Shown here piece by piece: positions 1 through 38,549 of a stretch of DNA of 38,549 nt. This DNA comes from a virus. Position 1 is the first letter of the stretch; every line of letters begins with the position of its first letter. The translations under genes and the position numbers were made by a program. The stretch covers positions 1 through 38,549 of IMG/VR virus record IMGVR_UViG_3300028594_000085; one strand, given 5' to 3'. Below the pieces are notes generated by a model. It was not told the origin of the DNA. It ran no database searches and saw nothing but the letters and a program-made list of their open reading frames with translations.

Positions 1-55
1 GATTGGGCTTTTTAACTTTGTGTTTTTCCATGTTATAAAAACACTCCATTCATAC
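1..55. repeat. Terminal direct repeat, copy 1 (identical to 38495-38549)
   Basis: Base-by-base comparison: gattgggctttttaactttgtgtttttccatgttataaaaacactccattcatac occurs at both window ends. Confidence 0.97.
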
Positions 56-2856: not shown

Positions 2857-3095
2857 TAATTCTTGTCGTCTTTTGGCTTGTCGTATCCCTGCGCCTGCTT
2901 ACTGTCACTTAATCCTGCTACAGTAGGGTCCGTTACAATTCCACCAGCCACTAAAACAAGCAAAATAGCCTGTACATAGCGCTCGTATTGTCCGGCATCC
3001 ATTAACCCTAAGTCGGTGACAATCAGCCCCACAAAGGCAGCCAGCGCTACCCAGAACTTGTAGGATTTAAAGCGTACTTTCCAATTGATTTTCAT
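2847..3095 (-). CDS. Holin (phi LC3 / Phage_holin_1-like)
   Basis: The start MKINWKVRFKSYKFWVALAAFVGL, the later VTDPT..GLSDS motif, two hydrophobic segments and a charged C-terminus resemble the phi LC3 holin family. Position fits. Confidence 0.8.
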   Translation of the reverse strand: MKINWKVRFKSYKFWVALAAFVGLIVTDLGLMDAGQYERYVQAILLVLVAGGIVTDPTVAGLSDSKQAQGYDKPKDDKNYIR

Positions 3096-3098
3096 TTT

Positions 3099-3446
3099 TT
3101 ACCCTCCTATCACGTATTTAACAAACTCAAACAGCATATAAGCCAATCCCCCGCCGCCAACAGCTGCCGCGATAACACCCCATTTATGATTGTTGCTGTC
3201 TTTTTTAATGCCAAGGGTGTGTTCGAGCAGGGTGTCAAATATCATCCGCTGCTCTTTCTGGTGCTTCTCTATCAGCTGTTTTTGCTCGGTATTCTGGCTG
3301 TACAGCATGTTTTCAATTTTTGACTGGGAAGCCTGGACGGCATTTAAATCTTTTTTGACTTCGCCATAGTTCTTTTCCAGCTCAATAATACGGCGCTCGT
3401 GATCCTGCACCATCGACTCCATGTCGATCACTTCCTTTTCATCCAT
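3099..3446 (-). CDS. xhlA: XhlA-like lysis-associated membrane protein
   Basis: N-terminal coiled coil plus a single C-terminal TM (WGVIAAAVGGGGLAYMLF). Located immediately upstream of the holin, as in PBSX-type lysis cassettes. Confidence 0.65.
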   Translation of the reverse strand: MDEKEVIDMESMVQDHERRIIELEKNYGEVKKDLNAVQASQSKIENMLYSQNTEQKQLIEKHQKEQRMIFDTLLEHTLGIKKDSNNHKWGVIAAAVGGGGLAYMLFEFVKYVIGG

Positions 3447-12413: not shown

Positions 12414-12801
12414 TTACTTTCAGCCCTGTATATTTTTTGAGTTGGTCAGCCCGAATACTTTCTGCTTTTTCCTTAATCGGTTCCGCCAGGAAATAAACCA
12501 TATCGACCATATTCAGCAGGGAGTTTCCGGACTCTTTATAAAGCCTCTCAAATTCCCCATCCCCAAGCATTAAGTCTACAAAGTCTTTGACCAGTTTCCG
12601 CATCTCCAGGAACATCTCATTCTGTTCTTTTGCGGATAGATCTTTGACATCTTTCTTCTGTAAGTCCTGGGTTTTCAAAAAGAACTGTTCAAATTCTCGG
12701 TTGTATTCCATTACTTTTTCGTCTGAAAAGTCTAGTGTGTAGGTCTTGCCTGCAATTTCTATGTCTTCCGTTTTCGTCTGAAACTCAAATTTTCTAGTCA
12801 T
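12382..12801 (-). CDS. Tail assembly chaperone
   Basis: Sits between the major tail protein and tape measure genes. The ATG at 12801 has GGAGG 7 nt upstream; the track start at 12816 lies within that SD. Confidence 0.65.
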   Translation of the reverse strand: MTRKFEFQTKTEDIEIAGKTYTLDFSDEKVMEYNREFEQFFLKTQDLQKKDVKDLSAKEQNEMFLEMRKLVKDFVDLMLGDGEFERLYKESGNSLLNMVDMVYFLAEPIKEKAESIRADQLKKYTGLKVNANALPSSRE

Positions 12802-13366: not shown

Positions 13367-13762
13367 TTACCTTCCTCCTTCTAATTCAGCCGTGAACATG
13401 GCTGTGTAGATAAATTCGTTGTGATCGGTTTCCTCCAGATAGTTTGGGTAGGTGTATACTTCACAACGGATAAAAACAAAACTGCCGTTCTCGCTTTTTA
13501 TCGCAGAGTTCGGCAGTCCGTCTAGTAACTCCGTAATCTCGTTTATAAGCCGTATCGCTTCAAACTGATTCGGGTCTTTTATTAAAATCTGAAAAGAGTA
13601 TTCATACGTCTTGCTGTTATCGAGCGACCGGGAGATCGGACTGGAGGGAGTGGGGCGGAGTGCTGCTGCCTGTTCTCCCTTGCCAAGTTTTCCGACGCTG
13701 AAAAACGACGGCATTTCTATCCGGTCCTCGATAAAATCTAGTAGGCGATCCAGGAAGTCCAA
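13367..13762 (-). CDS. Tail terminator / tail completion protein (minor capsid 2-like)
   Basis: 131 aa immediately upstream of the major tail protein gene. TTG start with AGAGAGG SD. Confidence 0.6.
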   Translation of the reverse strand: MDFLDRLLDFIEDRIEMPSFFSVGKLGKGEQAAALRPTPSSPISRSLDNSKTYEYSFQILIKDPNQFEAIRLINEITELLDGLPNSAIKSENGSFVFIRCEVYTYPNYLEETDHNEFIYTAMFTAELEGGR

Positions 13763-13790
13763 ACCATCCGCCTCTCTTTCTAAAAGTCAT

Positions 13791-14049
13791 TTACAACAAG
13801 TACAACAGAAACAACGTAATTCCTATATAGTCTAAATACACGTGTTATGCGTACACGTATACATGTACATACGCATATACTATATATTTATACTTACATA
13901 CTAATTATTGTTGTATCTGTAGTATATAGAGTAGTAACCCTTGGTGTGATAGGCTTTAAAGGTACTACAGACTGGCTTTTATTCTGTTGGATTGCGTTGT
14001 ATCTGTTGTATTCCTCTGAATTCAGATACTACAGACTTACAACAGAGTC
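13791..14049. repeat. Dispersed 259-nt noncoding repeat, copy A
   Basis: Hand-aligned to 25089-25347 at a constant offset of 11,298 nt: 13791-13823 (28/33), 13877-13942 (64/66), 13963-14049 (75/87). Contains TACTACAGA and ACAACAGA motifs and the palindrome TCTGAATTCAGA (14015-14026). Confidence 0.9.
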
Positions 14050-14066
14050 TGTTGTACTTTTTCGGG

Positions 14067-14432
14067 TTATTTCCCGTTAAAATATTGCTCGTAATTCTGC
14101 CGGACTTTGTCTAGCCAGAAACCTTTCCGGACAGCTTTCGCCTCCTCAAACCATAAGCCCCTGGCATAAGGGTTCTTGTCTGTCGAGAAATTATATTGCG
14201 GGTTGTAGTAAAGCCTCCGGGCGTATGGCGTGTCCCAGATGATCAGACCTTGACCAATCAGGCTGGATCGGATCCCGCTGCCTTCCAGCGTCCCGATCTG
14301 TTTCGGGATGTAGTTGTTGGAGTCTTTCAGGACGTCCTGGTCCAGCATCATCTGGGCAGCCCGTTTGGACTGGGTCCGCTTGGCGTCTAGCTTTGCCCGG
14401 TCAATATCAATCTGCATCTGAAACGTAAGCAT
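14067..14432 (-). CDS. Head-tail joining / neck protein (minor capsid protein-like)
   Basis: 121 aa within the connector block. The motif IWDTPYARRLYYNP..NPYARGLWFE resembles phage minor capsid / HK97 gp10-like neck proteins. Confidence 0.6.
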   Translation of the reverse strand: MLTFQMQIDIDRAKLDAKRTQSKRAAQMMLDQDVLKDSNNYIPKQIGTLEGSGIRSSLIGQGLIIWDTPYARRLYYNPQYNFSTDKNPYARGLWFEEAKAVRKGFWLDKVRQNYEQYFNGK

Positions 14433-18695: not shown

Positions 18696-20187
18696 CCCCG
18701 CTGCCTCCTCCGCCATTTAATCCGAAGAAGTCAATAGCTTCTGGAGTAGTCCGGCGTTGCTCTTCTGCAATTCGAATCAGTTCATCCTCGGCTTCATCTT
18801 CAGTCAATCCCAGCAGGGCAATTATGGCTCGTTTCTTAGAAGCAAGGTCATTGGAGACAAGCTGCGTCCAATATTGCAGATCTCCCATTTTGTCCTCTGC
18901 TACTGAATCGTCAAAGGTGACAGTGACCTCGTAATCTTCCGGACGGTTGAACAGCTCATATTCTTCTGCCAGGTCCAGGATGATCTCCACCAGGTCCTTG
19001 ATGCCTTCCTCGATCATCGTTTCATGGGATTGTTTGGTGCGGAAGGTCTTACTGTTTTCTGACACAACTTCTGTAGCTGTTTTCATCGACTGGCCGTCAA
19101 AGCTGAATGATCCAGCAGAAAAGCCCGTCTGCATTGCAAACAGATTAAGCAGCGCATTTATAGCTGAAACATGTTCATCAACTCGGAGCTCTACTGAATT
19201 ATCATGAATCTTCTGCCCTTCAGGATCATCAAATTTAAATGCCTGGTAGACCTCGTCATCTGCGTCAAAATACCGCACCTGTTTTCCAGTCTCCGGATCG
19301 TTGACATATTTAATAGCAGAAGAGGGGACCAGGATCCGTTTCTTGCCTAGTCGGAATTCGCGTTCAAACGAGTCGAAAGCAATGTCGATAGCTTTAATGG
19401 TATCTAATGCATTCCCATAGATGGAAACGCCCATCGGGCTATCCATATCTACGTTGTTTGCGCTGTTCGGCTTGATGTAAACAAAGATAGGACGCTTCCA
19501 GTTATTAAATTCAATGACCGGCTCCAGGTCAGGGTAGAGGACCTTAATATCTACAGGCGTTCCAATCTCTCCGGTAGATGTCTTTGCTTCATACAGTTCA
19601 TGATCCACATAATAGGTGCCTTGCTTCCAGTAATGCCATTCTAAATGGGTATAGGTTTTATCGCCCTTCACCGTCTCATTGATAAAGACGCCCTCCGTTA
19701 CTTTCTTGTTGGTCCAGCCGGTAGGGATAAAAGAGTCTGCTTTAACATAAGCAATTTTCATCTGCTGATCTTCCACGTGCGCTTTTACGACAAAGCCGCC
19801 AAGCGCAAACATATACTCCAGGTAGCGCTGAAACTCTCTGCGGAAACCGTTATTGTCCAGCACATCCTCAATATCTTTCCTTAGCGTTTCGTCGGAGATG
19901 TTCACCTGGCAGCGCTCGTTAAATACGAGTGTAGCCATTTCTTCTGAAACAACTTTAGGCATACCCAGCGAGCTCCTGCGCCGTTTCTTTGTGCCGGAAA
20001 TGGTTTTATCTTGCGTATCATGAAAAGGCCCGTAATATCCCTGATAGAGCGCTTTCCAGGTCTCCATCTGCTGGAACATTGGTTCTGAAATGTTTAAATC
20101 TCGTTTATCGCTAAGGTCTTTTAGACCTTGAATCAATCCCATATTATAAAGCCACCTCCTCACTGTAGAGACGATACTCTTAAACAT
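18685..20187 (-). CDS. Portal protein (SPP1 gp6-like)
   Basis: 500 aa, located downstream of terL and upstream of MuF. Confidence 0.85.
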   Translation of the reverse strand: MFKSIVSTVRRWLYNMGLIQGLKDLSDKRDLNISEPMFQQMETWKALYQGYYGPFHDTQDKTISGTKKRRRSSLGMPKVVSEEMATLVFNERCQVNISDETLRKDIEDVLDNNGFRREFQRYLEYMFALGGFVVKAHVEDQQMKIAYVKADSFIPTGWTNKKVTEGVFINETVKGDKTYTHLEWHYWKQGTYYVDHELYEAKTSTGEIGTPVDIKVLYPDLEPVIEFNNWKRPIFVYIKPNSANNVDMDSPMGVSIYGNALDTIKAIDIAFDSFEREFRLGKKRILVPSSAIKYVNDPETGKQVRYFDADDEVYQAFKFDDPEGQKIHDNSVELRVDEHVSAINALLNLFAMQTGFSAGSFSFDGQSMKTATEVVSENSKTFRTKQSHETMIEEGIKDLVEIILDLAEEYELFNRPEDYEVTVTFDDSVAEDKMGDLQYWTQLVSNDLASKKRAIIALLGLTEDEAEDELIRIAEEQRRTTPEAIDFFGLNGGGGSGDGR

Positions 20188-20400
20188 TTACTCACCGCCT
20201 GTGTTTTCGTATCTGTCAACAATGCTGACTATAAAATCATTTACTTCTAGATTAAAATTTTCATGGAGTACATGAGCAGGAAAGGTTGCTGTTTTAACTT
20301 CCTTTGTTTGATGTATCCGGTACTTTATATAAACAGAAGGCCCGTCGTCAGGGTCTACATAGAACCGGGCTTCATACACTCCATATTTAGCTTTGGGCAT
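20188..20400 (-). CDS. Hypothetical 70-aa protein
   Basis: Abuts the portal start and follows terL by 12 nt. Confidence 0.6.
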   Translation of the reverse strand: MPKAKYGVYEARFYVDPDDGPSVYIKYRIHQTKEVKTATFPAHVLHENFNLEVNDFIVSIVDRYENTGGE

Positions 20401-20412
20401 CTCCAGCGCCTC

Positions 20413-23397: not shown

Positions 23398-24777
23398 TTA
23401 CGATCCACTCCCTTTATACTTTTCAAGCCGTGCTTTTACGGCGTCCATTAACTCATCTTGGCTGCTTGTTTTATTCTCCAGGGCCTTCATGACTTTCTCG
23501 TCAATGGAGTCCTCCACAATCAGATGGTAGATTGTGACGGTGCTTTTCTGACCTTGTCGGTAGAGCCTCGCGTTTGCCTGCTGGTAGAGCTCCAGGCTCC
23601 AGTTCAGTCCGAACCAGATCACGGTGTTTCCGCCATCCTGCATATTCAGCCCGTGTCCGGCACTCGCAGGATGGGTGAGAAGGACGGGGATCTCTCCGCG
23701 GTTCCAGGCCTTGAAATGTTCATCGGTCTCCAGCTTGACGGCATCCTTGATTCTTTCTTCGATACGCTCTAGGTCATGTTTAAAGTTATAGAATACAAGT
23801 ACGGGCTTTCCGTTTGCCTGCTCGATCAGATCCTCCAGGACGTCCAGCTTCTCATCATGGATGTGCTGCACCCCCTCGTTTTCGTCATAGACAGCTCCAT
23901 TGGAGATCTGAAGCAGTTTATTACTCAAGACAGCTGCCGTATCCGCCACTATGTCGCCGTCATCATACGGCAACAGAAACTCCTTCTCCAGCTGTTCATA
24001 CTTCTTGCGGGCGGCAGGGGAGAGGCGGACCTGTTCGATCTGGTCTATGCGCTCTGGCATCTTCAGGTAATCGTCTGCCTTCATACTGACACAGATATCG
24101 CTGATTTTCTTGTATATATTTTCCTCGGCTTCGGGCTTCGGCAGCCATTCATACACCACATGGCGGCTCGGATCTCCAGCCCCCGGAATGAAATATCGTT
24201 GCTTGTAGCCGGTAATCGTCTTTCCTAATCGCTCTCCCTGATCCAGCAGATACATCTGCGGCCAGAGGTCTATTAAGCCATTCGGTGCTGGCGTTCCGGT
24301 CAGCCCGACGATTCGTTTAATGAATGGCCGCACTTTCCGTAATGCCCGGAAGCGTTTCGACTTACTGGACTTAAAACTGGAGAGCTCATCAATCACAACC
24401 ATTTCAAACGGCCACTTGTCTTTATAGTAATCGACCAGCCAGACCACGTTTTCCCGGTTAATCGTGTAGATGTCTGCGTCAGCTTTCAGGGCCGCGATCC
24501 TGTCCTGTTTGGATCCGAGGACTTTTGAGACCCGGAGATGCCGCAGGTGCTCCCATTTCTCGATCTCATCCGGCCAGGTGTGCTTGGCTACCCGCAGAGG
24601 GGCGATAACAAGCACGCGAGGGGCTATCTCAAAATAGTCATACATCAGGTCAAAGACGGCGGTCAGAGTAGAGACCGTCTTGCCCATGCCCATATCAAGA
24701 AAGAGACCAGCTGCCGGGTTCTCGATGATTTTCTGGATGGAATACTCCTGATAGTCATGCGGGATAAAGTTTGTCAT
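23398..24777 (-). CDS. SNF2-family helicase
   Basis: Motif I GMGKT, DExx-box VIDELS, and helicase C region with QANARLYRQGQ. Confidence 0.85.
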   Translation of the reverse strand: MTNFIPHDYQEYSIQKIIENPAAGLFLDMGMGKTVSTLTAVFDLMYDYFEIAPRVLVIAPLRVAKHTWPDEIEKWEHLRHLRVSKVLGSKQDRIAALKADADIYTINRENVVWLVDYYKDKWPFEMVVIDELSSFKSSKSKRFRALRKVRPFIKRIVGLTGTPAPNGLIDLWPQMYLLDQGERLGKTITGYKQRYFIPGAGDPSRHVVYEWLPKPEAEENIYKKISDICVSMKADDYLKMPERIDQIEQVRLSPAARKKYEQLEKEFLLPYDDGDIVADTAAVLSNKLLQISNGAVYDENEGVQHIHDEKLDVLEDLIEQANGKPVLVFYNFKHDLERIEERIKDAVKLETDEHFKAWNRGEIPVLLTHPASAGHGLNMQDGGNTVIWFGLNWSLELYQQANARLYRQGQKSTVTIYHLIVEDSIDEKVMKALENKTSSQDELMDAVKARLEKYKGSGS

Positions 24778-25058
24778 CCTCCATGCACCTCAATTAGCCG
24801 GATCAGTTCGTCCACTTTGGCCTTGGAGTCGATGACCATTGCCTTAAAATTCATCTCACGTAATTCTTTCATGCGCTTCTCCTGGAGACGCCGCGCTTTC
24901 TTACCTGGTGCCTTGAGTTCAACAAAGAAGATCCAGGCGTTAGGGAATAAAACAATCCGGTCCGGCATCCCTCGAATGCCGGAATTAAATTTATAGGCTC
25001 TGCCTCCGGCGGCTTTTACTTTTTTCTTCAGATACCCTTCAATTTCTTCCTCTAGCAC
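24774..25058 (-). CDS. VRR-NUC domain nuclease
   Basis: 94 aa. PDRIVL....FVELKAPGKK..RLQEKR matches the VRR-NUC D..ExK pattern. GTG start. Confidence 0.75.
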   Translation of the reverse strand: MLEEEIEGYLKKKVKAAGGRAYKFNSGIRGMPDRIVLFPNAWIFFVELKAPGKKARRLQEKRMKELREMNFKAMVIDSKAKVDELIRLIEVHGG

Positions 25059-25088
25059 TTTTAGCCTACCTCCTTAAAAACTGCCCAC

Positions 25089-25347
25089 TTACTACAGATA
25101 CAACAGAAACAACAGAATTCCCCTATATATTAATAACGCGTGTTATGCGGATACGCGGGTGCCTATATATGCTTATACTATATATTTATACTTATATAGT
25201 AATTATTGTTGTATCTGTAGTATATAGAGTAGTAACCCTTGATATATCAATATTTACGGCTACTACAGACTTGCTTTTACTCTGTTGTATTCTGTTGTGT
25301 CTGTTGTAATGGTCTGAATTCAGATACTACAGAGATACAACAGAGTC
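25089..25347. repeat. Dispersed 259-nt noncoding repeat, copy B
   Basis: Fills the 308-bp gap between the primase and VRR-NUC genes. TACTACAGA at 25090, 25261 and 25325, and inverted at 25214. ACAACAGA at 25100, 25109 and 25337, and three tandem inverted copies at 25281, 25291 and 25300. AT-rich core 25175-25240. Palindrome 25313-25324. Confidence 0.9.
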
Positions 25348-25366
25348 CGATGTAAGTGAATCGTGA

Positions 25367-27769
25367 CTAAAGCCTCACATATGCCCGCTGCTGCCCGTAG
25401 TTTTTGCCGAATGAAAGGGTAGATCCGTACGGTTTCCAGCCTGGCATTTCTCGTAAAATATCATTAATATTGCGGGCGTCGACGGGACGAAATTGCTTCG
25501 GATCGCCATTGAAAACCTCGACCCATATCTCCAAAGCACAAACCCGGTCCCGTTTGGCCGTTCCTTCCTGACCGCCAAAATCGCCGCTTAGATAAAGCTT
25601 TCTGGCAGATATGTCCTTCTCATTCCAATCAGAAGGGAGGTCCATTTCTAGGAAGTTTTGGACCAGTCCAAACATTGGGTTTTCCTCCCGGTGCAGCTCT
25701 TGTCTTCTGGTGGCTTCCTGCTGCATTGCCGGGTCCTCCAGGTAGAGCTTCTCGCCTCTATGGTAATTCGCCACGGCCTCCGCCCATATCTGGTGTACGG
25801 TCTCTTTGGTCAATTCTTTCAGCATGCCTTTATTCTTTCGTGATTCATCTATGGTAACGGGCCAGAATCTCCGGTTCCCAGTTCTGTCTTTAAGGAAATC
25901 ATGGTCATTCGTCGTACCGATAAAAATGCACTGTCTCGGGAAGGACGACACCTGCCGGCCGTACGCTACCCGGAATATATCTTCTCGTTTAGATAAAAAC
26001 TGTTTAATGGCTTCATTGTCTGCTTTTCGTGTCGCTGTCAGCTCGGACATCTCAATAATCCAGACGCCCTGCAGCTGTTCATAGGCTTCTTTTCCTTGTA
26101 CCGTTGTGAGGGAGTCAGAGAACCAGTCCTGTCCCAGTTTATCCAGCAGAAGCGATTTACCGGCACCCTGCGGCCCGACGAGGGTCAGCATGTAGTCATA
26201 CTTCACACCCGGCCGGAAAATGCGAGCAACGGCTGCAGTAAGAGCTTTGCGGGTAACGGTCCGGGTAAACTTCGTGTCCTCGACACCCAGGTAGTCAATC
26301 AGAATCGACTCCATGCGTTCGACGCCGTCCCAATCCAATGATTCCAGGTATTCCCGGACGGGATGATGCCGGTGCCGTTTCATAATCACACTTAATGCGT
26401 CCTTGGCTTTACCCACCGAATCGACTTCATAAATACTTTCTAAATAATGTAGAAGCGCTGCATCGTCGTTATCTTCCCAGAGGCTTCCGGCTGTTGCATC
26501 GTCCCAGGGAAGATCCCCGAGAATAACCGGACGATGGGAAAACTCGTTATATGCAATCTTTCCTTTCAAGTTCGGGTCATTTTCCAGGATGATCAGAATG
26601 TTATCCCGGGTAGACAGGATCCGGCCGGACTTGTTGACCTCCAGCTTACTGAGCCATGCGTTGCTGTCTTCGACTTTATCAAAGACGACGCCAGCCTCTT
26701 CCAGCCGTTCCTCGCCCATGCGTTGCTTAACCGTCCCATCTTTTGCAACAAATTCGGTCATCGCGACGTAAGAGGGAAGACGGGTGACAGGCGTCCCGTC
26801 TTTTGCCTCGTCGTCCCGTATGCCAAACTTATGGATCCGTACCAGGTCAAAGGCATTGACCAAAAGCCCGCTGACCGGATCTGTTCCATGATGGGAATAG
26901 GCAAACTTATCATCGTAGAGCACCAGGCCGCCGGATGTGCTGCCTTTCGTGTAAGTGTAGCGTCCGTCCTGTTCCTGGCGATAGACGTCTGACAGAAACG
27001 TTGCAATGGCTTCAGGGATCGAATACGTCCGGTTAAAGGCACCGATCAGTCCCGGTTTTTCGTATGGATCGCCCTGTCTGTCCGCCATGCGCTCCCTGGA
27101 CTGCCGGACCCTGCTGGACTCGGGCCATAAAGACGGATCCGTCCAGTCGGAATACCGGGCCAGAATATCGTCCGGATCAATCCAGGGCATATCCTGCATC
27201 TCGAAGATAAACTGCCCGTCCTGGGACGTACTCGGCCAGTACATGAGCCGGTGCGCCTGATAGGTTGTATCATCAAAGAAGTCAATACCCAAGTCTGCGG
27301 CCAGCCGTCTGCTGATTGCCTGGTATTCTTCCGGAGTCACAGGCCGGGAAAGGGGGATGACCAGCCGGATTCTTGGGTTATCTGGTGTATGGGAGTGTGT
27401 CGAATAGGCAAGGCAGGCAAAGTCGAACAACGTCTCGACACTCGCCCAGAAGTCGCCTTTAATAAAATCGGCGTCCAGGGTAATGAGCTGCCGCCAAACG
27501 ACGGCATCCTGCTTCCTGCGTCCGCCTTTCAGTGTACCGCCGACAAAGCCGCCGACGTCCTTGATGTCATCCTGGACGCTCTTGGCGCTCTTGCGGTACT
27601 CTTCATACGTTTCACCCGTCCGCGTTGTGCGGGAGAGACGCCCGGCCAACTCGGACCAGAGCATCTCCCTGTTTTTCCATTGCGTCTCTTTTCTGTTGCG
27701 TCCCGTTGCAATCGTGAGCGTGCCGTCGTGCTGAATGTGTCTCTGCTGTTTATCTGCTTTCTCGTTCAT
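25367..27769 (-). CDS. DNA primase / helicase of the virulence-associated protein E (VirE) type
   Basis: 800 aa. Walker A GPQGAGKS in the C-terminal half, and a large N-terminal primase-type region. Typical partner of the DUF2800/DUF2815/PolA module. Confidence 0.75.
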   Translation of the reverse strand: MNEKADKQQRHIQHDGTLTIATGRNRKETQWKNREMLWSELAGRLSRTTRTGETYEEYRKSAKSVQDDIKDVGGFVGGTLKGGRRKQDAVVWRQLITLDADFIKGDFWASVETLFDFACLAYSTHSHTPDNPRIRLVIPLSRPVTPEEYQAISRRLAADLGIDFFDDTTYQAHRLMYWPSTSQDGQFIFEMQDMPWIDPDDILARYSDWTDPSLWPESSRVRQSRERMADRQGDPYEKPGLIGAFNRTYSIPEAIATFLSDVYRQEQDGRYTYTKGSTSGGLVLYDDKFAYSHHGTDPVSGLLVNAFDLVRIHKFGIRDDEAKDGTPVTRLPSYVAMTEFVAKDGTVKQRMGEERLEEAGVVFDKVEDSNAWLSKLEVNKSGRILSTRDNILIILENDPNLKGKIAYNEFSHRPVILGDLPWDDATAGSLWEDNDDAALLHYLESIYEVDSVGKAKDALSVIMKRHRHHPVREYLESLDWDGVERMESILIDYLGVEDTKFTRTVTRKALTAAVARIFRPGVKYDYMLTLVGPQGAGKSLLLDKLGQDWFSDSLTTVQGKEAYEQLQGVWIIEMSELTATRKADNEAIKQFLSKREDIFRVAYGRQVSSFPRQCIFIGTTNDHDFLKDRTGNRRFWPVTIDESRKNKGMLKELTKETVHQIWAEAVANYHRGEKLYLEDPAMQQEATRRQELHREENPMFGLVQNFLEMDLPSDWNEKDISARKLYLSGDFGGQEGTAKRDRVCALEIWVEVFNGDPKQFRPVDARNINDILREMPGWKPYGSTLSFGKNYGQQRAYVRL

Positions 27770-28293
27770 TAGGCTTCATCCTTTAACTGCTGCTGATTTC
27801 TCTTTTTATCCAGTACGTGATCCCGGCCATGACTCCACATCTTGGCTATTTCTTTTCTGGATATCAGCGGGATCGTGGCGGCATCTTCTAAAGTCCAGCC
27901 TCGTCTGACCCGTTTACAAAACGTGCCATATGATATGCCGTTTTCTTTTGCAAGGTTTATATATTTTAACGGATATTTGCGCCGCCTTGCTTTCCGTGCT
28001 CTTTTCACAACCTCTGACGTTTCCATAAGAGGTGCGGTTGCTGCATCTTCAGGAGTGAAGCCGTCCCTGTTGACTCGATGGTAAAAGGTATTATAGGGAA
28101 TACCGTTCTGCTTGGCTATATCAAGCAGGTCTTTGTCATACCGCTTAAACTGGCCTCTCGGGGGCTCGGTAAGAGCACGCTCTTTCTCCCAGCCCAACTC
28201 CCGGACCCGCTGGTTTAGGGTAGTATTCGATATCCCGTTTTGTTCTGCAATCTCATATTCTTCTGGCGTGATGTAAAAATCGTAAACACTCAT
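27769..28293 (-). CDS. DNA-binding protein with three tandem HTH-like repeats
   Basis: Repeats A(E/K)(Q/E)NGI(S/P)..T...RV...G(W/F)..E.A.T.P at about aa 8-44, 52-88 and 107-142. AAGGAGG SD. Confidence 0.7.
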   Translation of the reverse strand: MSVYDFYITPEEYEIAEQNGISNTTLNQRVRELGWEKERALTEPPRGQFKRYDKDLLDIAKQNGIPYNTFYHRVNRDGFTPEDAATAPLMETSEVVKRARKARRRKYPLKYINLAKENGISYGTFCKRVRRGWTLEDAATIPLISRKEIAKMWSHGRDHVLDKKRNQQQLKDEA

Positions 28294-36246: not shown

Positions 36247-36275
36247 ACAATACTACACTTTTTGTGCAGTGTCAA
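36247..36275 (-). promoter_or_regulatory. Early lytic promoter for the cro-like gene
   Basis: On the minus strand: TTGACA (36275-36270), 17 nt, TATTGT (36252-36247). Confidence 0.7.
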
Positions 36276-36330
36276 CACTAAAAGTGCAGTTTTTTCTCTT
36301 TTATATGTTGCATATTCTTCACTTTTAGTG
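36256..36330. promoter_or_regulatory. Operator cluster (three CACT-N3-AGTG-type sites)
   Basis: CACTTTTTGTG at 36256-36266 (one mismatch), CACTAAAAGTG at 36276-36286, CACTTTTAGTG at 36320-36330. They overlap the two divergent promoters. Confidence 0.65.
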
Positions 36331-36336
36331 TATAAT
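36308..36336 (+). promoter_or_regulatory. Promoter for the CI-like repressor gene
   Basis: TTGCAT (36308-36313), 17 nt, TATAAT (36331-36336). AAGGAGGTGA SD precedes the ATG at 36360. Confidence 0.7.
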
Positions 36337-36359
36337 TTTCACTATAAGGAGGTGAAGAA

Positions 36360-37001
36360 ATGACAGAAGACATTACTGTATCAAGGCAAAGGGAGGTTTT
36401 AGCCGAGAACATAAAAAATTTATTAAAAAGTAAAGGCATCAGTCAGACGGATATGGCCCGAGACTTGAACATTGCAGAAACAACAGTTTCCAGCTGGTTA
36501 AACGCGAAACGGTATCCCGGACTTAGAAACCTGCAGCGCATGGCGGATTACTTCAATGTACATCGTTCGGATCTTACAGAAGAAAAACCGACGAACCTAT
36601 ATGAAGTAACTCCGCAAACGATTCGAGTGCCTCTCATCGGAGTGATATCCTGCGGCGATCCAATCATCGCAGAAGAAAACATTGTAGGATACCGGCACGA
36701 ATCGCCGGACACGCTGCCAAGTGGAAAGCTCTTCTACCTAACAGCAGACGGCGACTCGATGGAACCGACCATACCAAACGGTTCCCAGGTACTGATCCGA
36801 GAACAGAGTCAAGTGGAGAATGGAGAGATAGCAGCCATCTTATTGGAAGGCGATACCGAAGCTACACTAAAGAGAGTCAAGAAGCAGGGTGACGTCATCA
36901 TGCTGGTTCCGGACAATGCAAAGCACGATCCAATCGTTGTATCGGAAGATAACCCGGCGCGAGTGATTGGTAAGGCAGTACGGTTCACGCAAGACCTTTA
37001 A
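36360..37001 (+). CDS. CI/LexA-like repressor (XRE HTH plus S24 peptidase domain)
   Basis: N-terminal HTH ISQTDMARDLNIAETTVSSWLN. C-terminal GDSMEP (catalytic Ser) and LKRVKK (Lys) of the S24 autocleavage domain. Confidence 0.9.
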   Translation: MTEDITVSRQREVLAENIKNLLKSKGISQTDMARDLNIAETTVSSWLNAKRYPGLRNLQRMADYFNVHRSDLTEEKPTNLYEVTPQTIRVPLIGVISCGDPIIAEENIVGYRHESPDTLPSGKLFYLTADGDSMEPTIPNGSQVLIREQSQVENGEIAAILLEGDTEATLKRVKKQGDVIMLVPDNAKHDPIVVSEDNPARVIGKAVRFTQDL

Positions 37002-37078: not shown

Positions 37079-38509
37079 ATGATGGAAGATAAAGAAAACG
37101 TACGGGCGTTTATTTATACGCGCGTCTCTACCCTGGAGCAAGCCCAGGAAGGGTACAGTATCGGGGCCCAGGAGAAGCGCCTGCGGGCTTATGCCGAAGC
37201 TAGAGGGTATGAGGTCATTAAAGTATATTCTGACCCTGCGTATTCCGGGGCAAACATGGACAGGCCTGCCCTCCAGAAGATGCTGGAGCAAGTAGAGCAG
37301 GGCGTTGTCGATGCTGTCCTGGTGTACAAGCTCGACCGGCTTAGCCGATCACAGAAAGATACACTGTATATGATTGAGGAAGTGTTCATTAAGCACGAGG
37401 TTGCTTTTGTCAGCATGAGTGAGTCGTTTGATACGTCAACGCCATTCGGGCGGGCCATGGTGGGGATCCTGTCCGTCTTTGCCCAGCTGGAGAGGGAACA
37501 GATCAAGGAACGGTTCATGCTAGGAAAACAGGCAAGGGCAGAAGCAGGCTTGTGGCATGCAGGGGGTGGAAAGGAAAGAGATGCTACCGGGTATGATTAT
37601 GTGCCGGGTGAGGGCCTTGTCGTGAATGAGTATGAAGCTGCCTGCGTCCGTTTCATCATCGAAAATTATCTGCAAGGTAATGGAGTTGCAAAGATCCATA
37701 AAGCTGTTATGGAGAAATTCCCGGGCGTCTTGTCATCGGAAACGACGGTCCGGAACGTTATCACCAATCCGCTGTATACCGGGAAGGTATCTTACCGGGG
37801 CGAATATTATGAGGGAGTCCATGAGCCACTTATCACGGAAGAAGAGTTCAAAACTGCCCAAGAGCTGCTGAAGAAACGGGCGACCAACTCAAGACCTTTT
37901 CACAGCCATTACTTACTGACCGGAGTAATCCGGTGCGGGGAGTGCGGCGCGAGGATGGCAGGGACGGCTGGAGCACTGCTGAAAAGTGGGGAACGCATGC
38001 GGTATTATGTTTGTCATTCCCGGCGTGGTACGCCGCTGCATATGGTTAAGGATCCAAACTGTAAAAAGCTTTCCGAGCGAAAAGAGCGTATAGAGGAAAA
38101 GGTCATCGGGGAGATCAAGAAAATAAACCTCCGCACCTTCCAGGCCATGAAGCCGGAAGAAGGCGGGGCAGCTGCCGATGTTGCGGTATATGAGGAGAAG
38201 ATAAAAGCGATTGACAGGCAGATCTCCAAGCTGATTGATCTGTATACCTTGGAGGACAGTCCGCTGGAGATGGTATCGGAAAAAATCGAGAAGCTAAAGC
38301 GGGAGAAAGACGGATTGAAGCGTCACCTGGAGGAGCTCACGAAAGAGCAGGAAGAATCAGACCTAAGCGGTATAATAGAGACAGTCTCCCAGCTATCCAC
38401 ATTTGACTGGGATAACGAGGAGACCGAGAGGAAACGGCTGATAGTCGCCAAACTAATCAATACAGTCGCCGTTTCTAATGATAATATTACCATAGATTGG
38501 GCTTTTTAA
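37079..38509 (+). CDS. int: Large serine recombinase (integrase)
   Basis: Resolvase-type N-terminus YTRVSTLEQ...YKLDRLSRS, then a recombinase domain, zinc ribbon CGECG...YYVCHS and C-terminal coiled coil. AGGGAGG SD. Confidence 0.92.
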   Translation: MMEDKENVRAFIYTRVSTLEQAQEGYSIGAQEKRLRAYAEARGYEVIKVYSDPAYSGANMDRPALQKMLEQVEQGVVDAVLVYKLDRLSRSQKDTLYMIEEVFIKHEVAFVSMSESFDTSTPFGRAMVGILSVFAQLEREQIKERFMLGKQARAEAGLWHAGGGKERDATGYDYVPGEGLVVNEYEAACVRFIIENYLQGNGVAKIHKAVMEKFPGVLSSETTVRNVITNPLYTGKVSYRGEYYEGVHEPLITEEEFKTAQELLKKRATNSRPFHSHYLLTGVIRCGECGARMAGTAGALLKSGERMRYYVCHSRRGTPLHMVKDPNCKKLSERKERIEEKVIGEIKKINLRTFQAMKPEEGGAAADVAVYEEKIKAIDRQISKLIDLYTLEDSPLEMVSEKIEKLKREKDGLKRHLEELTKEQEESDLSGIIETVSQLSTFDWDNEETERKRLIVAKLINTVAVSNDNITIDWAF

Positions 38510-38549
38510 CTTTGTGTTTTTCCATGTTATAAAAACACTCCATTCATAC
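38495..38549. repeat. Terminal direct repeat, copy 2 (identical to 1-55)
   Basis: Same 55-mer as 1-55. It contains the last 5 codons and the stop of the integrase ORF. Confidence 0.97.

Follow-up and report, generated by a model that had tools for sequence, protein, structure and literature searches.

A probable Pri-Rep-type replication origin and its matched second copy in a temperate Bacillaceae phage

The DNA examined here, IMG/VR virus record IMGVR_UViG_3300028594_000085 (positions 1 to 38,549, hereafter the window), is the genome of a phage that we describe as a temperate Bacillaceae siphophage, and the gap between its primase-helicase gene and the VRR-NUC nuclease gene that follows is occupied by a non-coding element of short repeats (iterons) around an AT-rich core, at 25086-25354, which we call copy B. 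Copy B is very probably the replication origin of the phage, and its sequence places it with the Pri-Rep type of origin found in Staphylococcus aureus pathogenicity islands (SaPIs) and other phage-inducible chromosomal islands (PICIs). A second element of the same kind, copy A, lies among the late structural genes, and we consider it likely that the two belong together, copy B as a Pri-Rep-type origin and copy A as a second cognate array for the protein that reads it. Elements of this kind are already known, as are two-origin layouts; the literature we searched contains no description of the origin of this phage replication module or of its duplication.

An iteron-rich element beside the primase-helicase gene

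The gap that holds copy B is 308 nt long and lies between two minus-strand genes, with just 13 nt separating the primase stop codon from the start of the element (25367 versus 25354). Its basic site, ACWACAGA, has 18 exact matches in the window where 2.06 +/- 1.43 are expected, a number reached in none of 100 shuffles, and all but one of the 18 fall inside copies A and B, each about 270 bp long. Copy B, which is complete and belongs to repeat family D1/D4, has ten perfect sites. On the plus strand (T)ACTACAGA occurs at 25090/25091, 25261/25262 and 25325/25326, with an inverted copy at 25214-25221, and ACAACAGA occurs at 25100, 25109 and 25337. On the side nearest VRR-NUC, the core is bordered by a plus-strand triplet of TACTACAGA, TACAACAGA and AACAACAGA at 9-nt spacing (25090-25116), and on the other side by an opposed, minus-strand pair (25207-25222); positions 25090-25105 are 100% complementary to 25207-25222. 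The core itself (25119-25206) is a probable DNA-unwinding element, containing a short, G+C-containing palindrome at about 25137-25158 and a stretch that is 83% A+T (25161-25206), as against 52% across the whole window, and its sequence is conserved among loci L001, L002, L088, L089, L091, L092 and L094. Beyond the opposed pair come a single plus-strand iteron TACTACAGA (25261-25269), three tandem inverted iterons TCTGTTGT on the minus strand (25281-25308, starting at 25281, 25291 and 25300 and thus spaced 10 and 9 nt), a palindrome TCTGAATTCAGA composed of two opposed half-iterons (25313-25324), and a plus-strand iteron pair that adjoins the primase stop codon (25325-25344). The palindrome recurs in copy A and is absent from the closest relative of the phage, a prophage described below (L005). 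An initial annotation made from the letters of the sequence had already recorded the motif positions, including the three inverted tandem copies and the palindrome, together with the perfect complementarity of the two arms and the very AT-rich stretch, and all of these are borne out; the second copy that it implied by the name 'copy B' is found at 13788-14056, in the same orientation and 82-86% identical.

One reason for regarding copy B as an origin is the protein encoded beside it. The adjacent gene (25367-27769, minus strand) specifies an 800-aa primase/SF3-helicase that is VapE-like according to Pfam (2.7e-82) and falls in PHROG 256. By sequence comparison it is a strong homologue of PriRep5 of SaPI5: it matches PDB 7PDS with an E-value of 5.8e-84 as a single sequence (residues 368-776) and of 2.4e-109 as a profile (residues 376-806); the match covers the helicase and the C-terminal part, and the alignment reaches through the C-terminal domain of the primase. 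PDB 7PDS comes from a study of SaPI Rep proteins, in which these proteins, including the fused PriRep5, are described as self-loading SF3 initiator-helicases that recognise iterons through a C-terminal winged-helix domain; PriRep5 binds ori5 and drives the replication of an ori5 plasmid, and this is lost without the C-terminal domain (PMC9371898). The SaPI origin lies immediately 3' of rep and consists of 6-12 iterons with an AT-rich centre and at least two opposed iterons on each side (PMC9371898), while PICI origins in Gram-negative bacteria always have two sets of iterons around an AT-rich region (PMC6092414).

In its neighbouring gene, its position and its arrangement of sites, copy B presents the sequence-level features that define a SaPI/PICI Pri-Rep origin. 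The neighbouring gene encodes a homologue of the Rep/PriRep-type SF3 initiator-helicases; the element lies immediately downstream of the primase open reading frame (ORF), as it does in about 50 homologous loci; and among its ten perfect sites the triplet at 25090-25116 faces the opposed pair at 25207-25222 across the core. The correspondence with PriRep5 and ori5 of SaPI5 extends to the fusion of primase and SF3 helicase in one initiator gene, to an element that starts directly 3' of that gene, and to the inventory of about ten short iterons with an AT-rich centre and at least two opposed iterons per side; as in SaPI/PICI origins generally, the iteron sequence is specific to the variant among relatives. 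There are also differences. The host of the element is a full temperate Bacillaceae siphophage with its own PolA and not a satellite island, its iterons are 8-9 bp long and of a G-N-N-N-ACA type whereas those of the islands are penta- or hexanucleotides, it has an extra upstream array (>> <<) with rigid spacing, and its second copy is placed 11.3 kb away inside the structural operon. The initial annotation had proposed an origin on the grounds of phased iterons and an AT-rich unwinding region next to replication genes, and this reading is strengthened both by the PriRep5 homology and by the presence of the element in the equivalent place in some 50 related phages.

These relatives come from a set of about 90 loci, collected through primase-based searches of viral and metagenome contigs and a pattern search with the core sequence. 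In about 50 of roughly 88 primase homologues from these contigs, a cluster of iterons starts at the stop codon of the primase gene and contains the motif in either orientation, and the layout of sites is near-identical among them (9 / ~20 / 12 / ~45 / 9 / ~95-100 / 9 nt). Read along the direction of transcription, a tandem pair with 9 nt within it is followed after a gap of ~20 nt by an opposed pair with 12 nt within it, and after a further ~45 nt by a second tandem pair (again 9 nt); the AT-rich core with its short hairpin then takes up ~95-100 nt before a final opposed pair (9 nt). In copy B, the sites at 25207-25222 are the canonical '>>' pair, ~95-100 nt from the opposed partner pair, and the triplet at 25090-25116 is equivalent to the final '<<' pair. 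At least 15 different motifs occupy this shared layout on the common skeleton G-N-N-N-ACA, among them GTAAACA, GGAAACA, GGCAACA, GGTAACA, GTTAACA, GTCAACA, GGATACA, TGATACA, GTCTACA, GGACACA, GGAACAA, TCTAACA and GTAGCAA, besides the (GA)TACAACAGA of the window and L005. The element family is a single scaffold that carries many specificities. One locus (L003, 8656-8881) has a GTCAACA element just upstream of VRR-NUC, with ~2.3 kb of inserted small genes before the primase, and so the element can become uncoupled from the primase stop codon. Direct sequence searches were less productive: cultured-phage DNA in INPHARED gave no match to the element or to a 10-kb stretch, no viral sequence matched an exact 23-mer taken from the conserved block, and the 70 viral matches to an 18-mer iteron pattern were discarded as chance, being without homologous genes.

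In proposing a mechanism for initiation, we suppose that the 8-9-bp iterons would act as double-stranded binding sites, and that their likeliest reader would be the winged-helix C-terminal domain of the adjacent PriRep5-like primase/SF3-helicase. The opposed site pairs that flank the AT-rich core of ~90 bp would position two hexamers, which would melt the core and, needing no separate loader, load themselves. Synthesis might then be started by the primase domain together with the phage PolA. Copy A would provide this reader with a second cognate array, one whose sequence is kept in step with that of copy B.

A second, matched copy among the structural genes

Copy A (13788-14056) has the same orientation as copy B and lies between the Minor_capsid_2 head-completion gene upstream (14067-14432, minus strand) and the tail-terminator gene downstream (13367-13762, minus strand), that is, inside the late operon and away from the replication genes; 11.3 kb separate the two copies. 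Its placement, which the initial annotation did not consider, calls for an explanation of its own. Among the Bacillaceae prophages that we retrieved by a TerL-based search of bacterial genomes, the closest relative (L005, in a Pseudogracilibacillus metagenome-assembled genome; 81% identity in TerL and 74% in the primase) carries both copies in the same two gene contexts, with the same type of motif and 11.1 kb apart. Nine other prophages have homologous structural genes without this primase, and in eight of them the gap between the minor capsid and tail-terminator genes is only 10-45 nt, the tail-terminator gene not being found in the ninth (L009). It follows from the short gap in these eight that copy A travels with the replication module and not with the structural genes.

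The two copies also resemble each other more than they resemble their counterparts. Copies A and B are 86-88% identical within a genome, whereas pairs taken from two genomes are 76-81% identical and the coding DNA that flanks them 74-76%, and when A is compared with B the iteron columns are better conserved than the other columns, both in the window (89% versus 79%) and in L005 (93% versus 81%). Such matching points to gene conversion, to co-selection for one reader, or to the two together, and on this comparative evidence copy A appears to be a second array of sites, conserved and co-evolving with copy B, that serves the same reader.

Two-copy genomes are not confined to this pair of phages, and elsewhere the second copy takes other positions (L104, L126, L147 and L155). 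In L126 and L089 it lies between an integrase gene (or a toxin-like gene) and an ImmA/ImmR pair. In three genomes (L089, L120 and L099) the second element has a very similar core but iterons of another type. The L089 elements, at 2275-2540 and 12515-12760, illustrate this with near-identical AT-rich cores and different iterons, GGATACAA beside the primase and GTCAACA in the element between the integrase and the ImmA/ImmR pair, and L120 and L099 look similar. Foreign second elements of this kind could be relics of module exchange, decoys, or sites for a second initiator. In a gut-phage lineage comprising L147 and L155, neither of the two iteron-rich copies, which have an AAACAAT motif, adjoins the primase gene; those of L147 (2893-3319 and 19848-20274) are 100% identical over 427 nt, and those of L155 lie at 2896-3184 and 20125-20403. 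An apparent second copy in L010, a Bacillus benzoevorans prophage, was rejected, for it is actually a duplicated AP2/HNH-like gene: one paralogue, of homing-endonuclease type, stands at the head-tail junction that copy A occupies in the window (18912-19570), and the other in the early region (1114-1770). The presence of this gene at the junction marks it as a hotspot for insertion.

The reader of the iterons and alternative explanations

By analogy with the SaPI Rep proteins, the reader of the iterons would be the C-terminal domain of the primase-helicase, which we favour for this role since its gene is the only one consistently linked to the element. A number of observations weigh against this assignment, or against the pairing of origin and second array. 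We infer both origin function and binding by the primase-helicase from homology and position, and GC skew, which only tracks the coding strand, adds no independent signal of an origin. Iteron type does not follow whole-primase identity: the L091 and L088 primases are 87% identical, yet their iterons are GGAAACA and GGATACA respectively. Nor did any 40-aa segment of the primase covary appreciably with iteron similarity in a sliding-window partial Mantel analysis (partial r <= 0.20), and none of the ORF families of the 47 loci compared, whatever its size, divides according to iteron type. A single residue of the wing, X in YG-X-QR, split nine sequences perfectly, but as a one-to-one code it failed when ~50 were considered. 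The second elements with foreign iterons in L089, L120 and L099 are hard to explain by one initiator, and copy A, with seven perfect sites and one near-perfect site against the ten perfect sites of copy B, could be partly decayed.

What we retain of the wing residue is a loose trend linking K/R/H to GG(A/G). Across ~50 sequences with YG-X-Q(R/K), K, R or H at X went with GGA/GGG-type iterons in 11/18 cases, compared with 4/33 for other residues, a contrast that is not phylogeny-corrected; X is possibly a base-contacting residue, to judge from these alignments. The motif lies at residues ~785-797 of the window primase (LSFGKNYGQQRAY), and X is small or hydrophobic where iterons start with GT or TG.

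Some of these difficulties would be eased if copy B were an origin read by another protein, perhaps a host factor or a small DNA-binding protein of the phage that evolves rapidly, the primase-helicase being recruited secondarily. The failure of the whole primase, and of each of its segments, to track iteron type is what this explanation would predict, and foreign-iteron second elements within one genome would fit extra readers. In the SaPI study, moreover, Rep1 discriminated poorly in vitro, and an unidentified specificity factor was raised as a possibility (PMC9371898). Against it, the comparison of ORF families across the 47 loci offers no better candidate, and the primase-helicase is the only gene universally linked to the element, with a homologue, PriRep5, that directly binds its own ori. 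The initial annotation had nominated as binder a 174-aa protein with multiple helix-turn-helix (HTH) motifs, encoded upstream of the primase (27769-28293), and this now seems unlikely: the protein is unique to the window, having no homologue in L005, which has the same iterons, or elsewhere among ~100 related loci, and it looks like a lineage-specific addition outside the conserved replication module. The ArpU-like protein is present in only three other loci. Taking both sides together, we regard a different reader as improbable.

The arrays could instead be operator or enhancer sites for a transcription regulator, such as an ArpU-like late activator, that mark where the middle and late transcription units start. 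Copy B does precede the genes for VRR-NUC, SNF2, ArpU and terminase, copy A precedes the tail genes, and L005 has a conserved ArpU-like protein (63% identity). However, almost none of the other element-bearing loci have the ArpU-like gene, and a promoter scan of copy B gave no more hexamers than chance would, with a single weak match in copy A. In phages with different sets of genes downstream, besides, the element remains tied to the primase 3' end, while second copies occur in unrelated contexts. These considerations make a regulatory role in place of an origin very unlikely.

We reach a still firmer negative opinion of the possibility that both copies are structured RNA, either a cis element (in processing, antitermination or stability) or a small non-coding RNA, with the arrays as its stems. 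Both copies lie inside co-oriented operons, with no terminator found on the transcribed strand within either copy, and hence are probably transcribed; their predicted folds are much more stable than those of shuffled sequences (z about -7); and the complementarity of the arms survives wholesale swaps of motif between phages. This last property cannot decide the matter, since a wholesale swap preserves arm complementarity whether the sites are RNA stems or protein targets. Individual deviant sites are more informative, and these are mostly uncompensated in the would-be pairing partner (~17 uncompensated versus ~3 compensated). The spacers between sites are unequal in sequence and in length, always 2 versus 5 nt in the first opposed pair, and a single 8-nt motif would have to serve for all 'stems', in tandem and in both orientations, a pattern usual for protein sites and not for RNA helices. 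Folding is as strong for one strand as for the other (z-scores of -7.7 and -7.1), and so there is no strand signature, and the second element of L089 is anti-oriented to its flanking genes. Searched with Rfam at gathering thresholds, the whole window gave no match, and a permissive search returned only noise, with a best score of 28 bits against a gathering score of 70 (sxy) and some miRNA-like hairpins. Folding and covariation across phages accordingly lend no support to the structured RNA that the initial annotation had offered as its alternative, which we judge extremely unlikely, and these sequence patterns argue for iterons that behave as double-stranded DNA sites and not as stems.

Least credible of all is a non-autonomous mobile or recombination element (MITE-like, that is, resembling a miniature inverted-repeat transposable element, or a pair of recombinase sites) that was copied into the head-tail junction with no role in replication. 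Presence at this insertion hotspot, where L010 has its homing-endonuclease-like gene, does vary among phages with homologous structural genes, and the position of second copies changes from one lineage to another. Against this reading, one copy always stays with the primase gene, the two copies of a genome share a genome-specific motif and co-evolve, no transposase is associated with them, the junction sequences read contain no target-site duplication, and the sites of large serine recombinases are unlike iteron arrays. Two further ideas were dropped, a template/variable repeat of a diversity-generating retroelement and a centromere (parS): the copies are non-coding and AT-rich, and neither a reverse-transcriptase family nor a partition family was present among the 20 genes scanned, which are a subset of the ORFs.

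Two-origin layouts, genome context and implications

A precedent for a second array among structural genes is SPP1, a Bacillus siphovirus in which oriL lies within gene 38 and oriR in a segment that breaks the conserved order of late structural genes (PMC6316719, PMC3485210). The two SPP1 origins are ~12-13 kb apart on the circular map and share the same organisation of repeats and an AT-rich unwinding element, and the initiator gp38 binds both; it has been proposed that gp38 bound at oriR stalls the replication fork and triggers the change from theta to concatemeric replication, by way of a Holliday-junction resolvase, an exonuclease and a recombinase (PMC6316719, PMC3485210). The phage in the window, like L005, has copy B in the replication module and copy A among the late structural genes. 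Both SPP1 and our phage are Bacillaceae siphoviruses with two similarly organised elements, one interrupting the late genes; the packaging/terminase region lies between the SPP1 origins, as terminase and head genes lie between the copies here. One initiator serves both SPP1 origins, as may also be the case for copies A and B with their shared iterons and matched evolution, and the switch factors of SPP1 may be set beside the VRR-NUC nuclease, SNF2 helicase, PD-(D/E)XK nuclease and single-stranded DNA-binding protein of the replication module in the window.

The differences from SPP1 are equally clear. Its initiator gp38 is unrelated and needs the gp39 loader and the gp40 DnaB-type helicase; no families resembling gp38, gp39 or gp40 occur among the 20 window genes scanned against Pfam, which lie outside the early region at 34.7-36.3 kb. 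The oriL of SPP1 is inside gene 38, whereas copy B is downstream of the initiator gene, and the SPP1 repeats are direct 'boxes'. Fork stalling is a proposal made for oriR, which would apply to copy A by analogy only. Given that the initiators are unrelated, the resemblance is one of layout and not of ancestry, an analogy and not membership of the same class.

Satellite phage P4 provides a different comparison. Its alpha protein unites primase, SF3 helicase and a C-terminal winged helix (PMC2777425). P4 and our phage are alike in joining primase and SF3 helicase in one polypeptide, in our phage too with a probable C-terminal winged helix, and in having two iteron loci, while the P4 primase domain is of the DnaG type and its helicase only distantly related. 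Work by Ziegelin and Lanka in 1995 reportedly placed octameric iterons at two separate P4 loci, ori and crr, both bound by the initiator; crr lies ~4.5 kb from ori and is required in cis. This arrangement suggests an alternative in which copy A would be a cis-acting enhancer. The Sfi21-type phages of Streptococcus thermophilus have a non-coding, repeat-rich origin after the primase gene; to our knowledge they use different replication proteins, and we know of no natural second copy described for them.

Copy A might therefore be a second origin, or an enhancer in the manner of P4 crr, or a barrier to forks, formed by bound initiator, that sets off the change from theta to concatemeric replication, as proposed for SPP1 oriR. 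A more ambitious version of the last idea, possible but on balance unlikely, is that copy A is no spare origin but a programmed, initiator-occupied site in the late operon that stalls forks for the concatemer switch, couples late transcription to replication, or does both, and that SPP1 and the PriRep phages converged on this arrangement independently. Were this so, a further step would be to see the foreign-iteron second elements of L089, L120 and L099 as natural origin decoys or landing pads in the competition between phages and satellites. Cloned origin copies can titrate replication factors, as in 'Per' origin-decoy resistance, which is possibly relevant to these foreign-iteron copies.

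The remainder of the genome is consistent in its organisation. An exact 55-bp repeat at both ends of the window (1-55 and 38495-38549) indicates a circular or complete assembly, and the complete phage genome is 38,494 bp long, with nearly all genes on the minus strand. An S24/HTH repressor (36360-37001) and a large serine recombinase (37079-38509) identify the phage, from its gene content, as temperate. Upstream of the primase are genes for PolA, an Enc34-type single-stranded DNA-binding protein and a DUF2800 PD-(D/E)XK nuclease. Directly downstream of copy B, the VRR-NUC nuclease gene (24774-25058, minus strand), assigned from Pfam and PHROG, is a conserved neighbour of the element in nearly all loci; it is followed by an SNF2-family helicase gene (23398-24777, minus strand), which belongs to the conserved module, and then by the genes for the ArpU-like protein, TerS and TerL. 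Other repeats in the window have different settings. In the gap between divergent genes that directly precedes the S24/HTH repressor gene, a 32-nt imperfect inverted repeat (36258-36348) probably serves as an operator for the lysis-lysogeny switch. Three ~94-nt repeats, ~200 nt apart (1613-2111), fall within a minus-strand ORF (1614-2807), and 21-nt periodic repeats (249-382) within a plus-strand ORF (159-758); these suggest repeat-domain proteins, and those of the former may be the cell-wall-binding repeats of a lysin.

This analysis provides a concrete, testable origin for a very common and poorly studied phage replication module, consisting of the DUF2800 nuclease, Enc34-type single-stranded DNA-binding protein, PolA, PriRep-like primase-helicase, VRR-NUC and SNF2, which is present in Bacillaceae prophages and in many gut and environmental phages. 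For the annotation of such genomes, the lesson is that when a late operon contains a gap of ~270 bp, a duplicated origin can account for it, and neither an overlooked gene nor an RNA has to be assumed. A recurrent and co-evolving second copy could allow the fork-barrier idea developed for SPP1 to be tested with an unrelated initiator. The parts that most merit pursuit are the code by which the iterons are read, the rigid scaffold with its many specificities and the second copies with foreign iterons; at least 15 iteron specificities on one scaffold offer material for understanding how self-loading SF3 initiators read DNA, and the same series would be useful for building orthogonal replicons.

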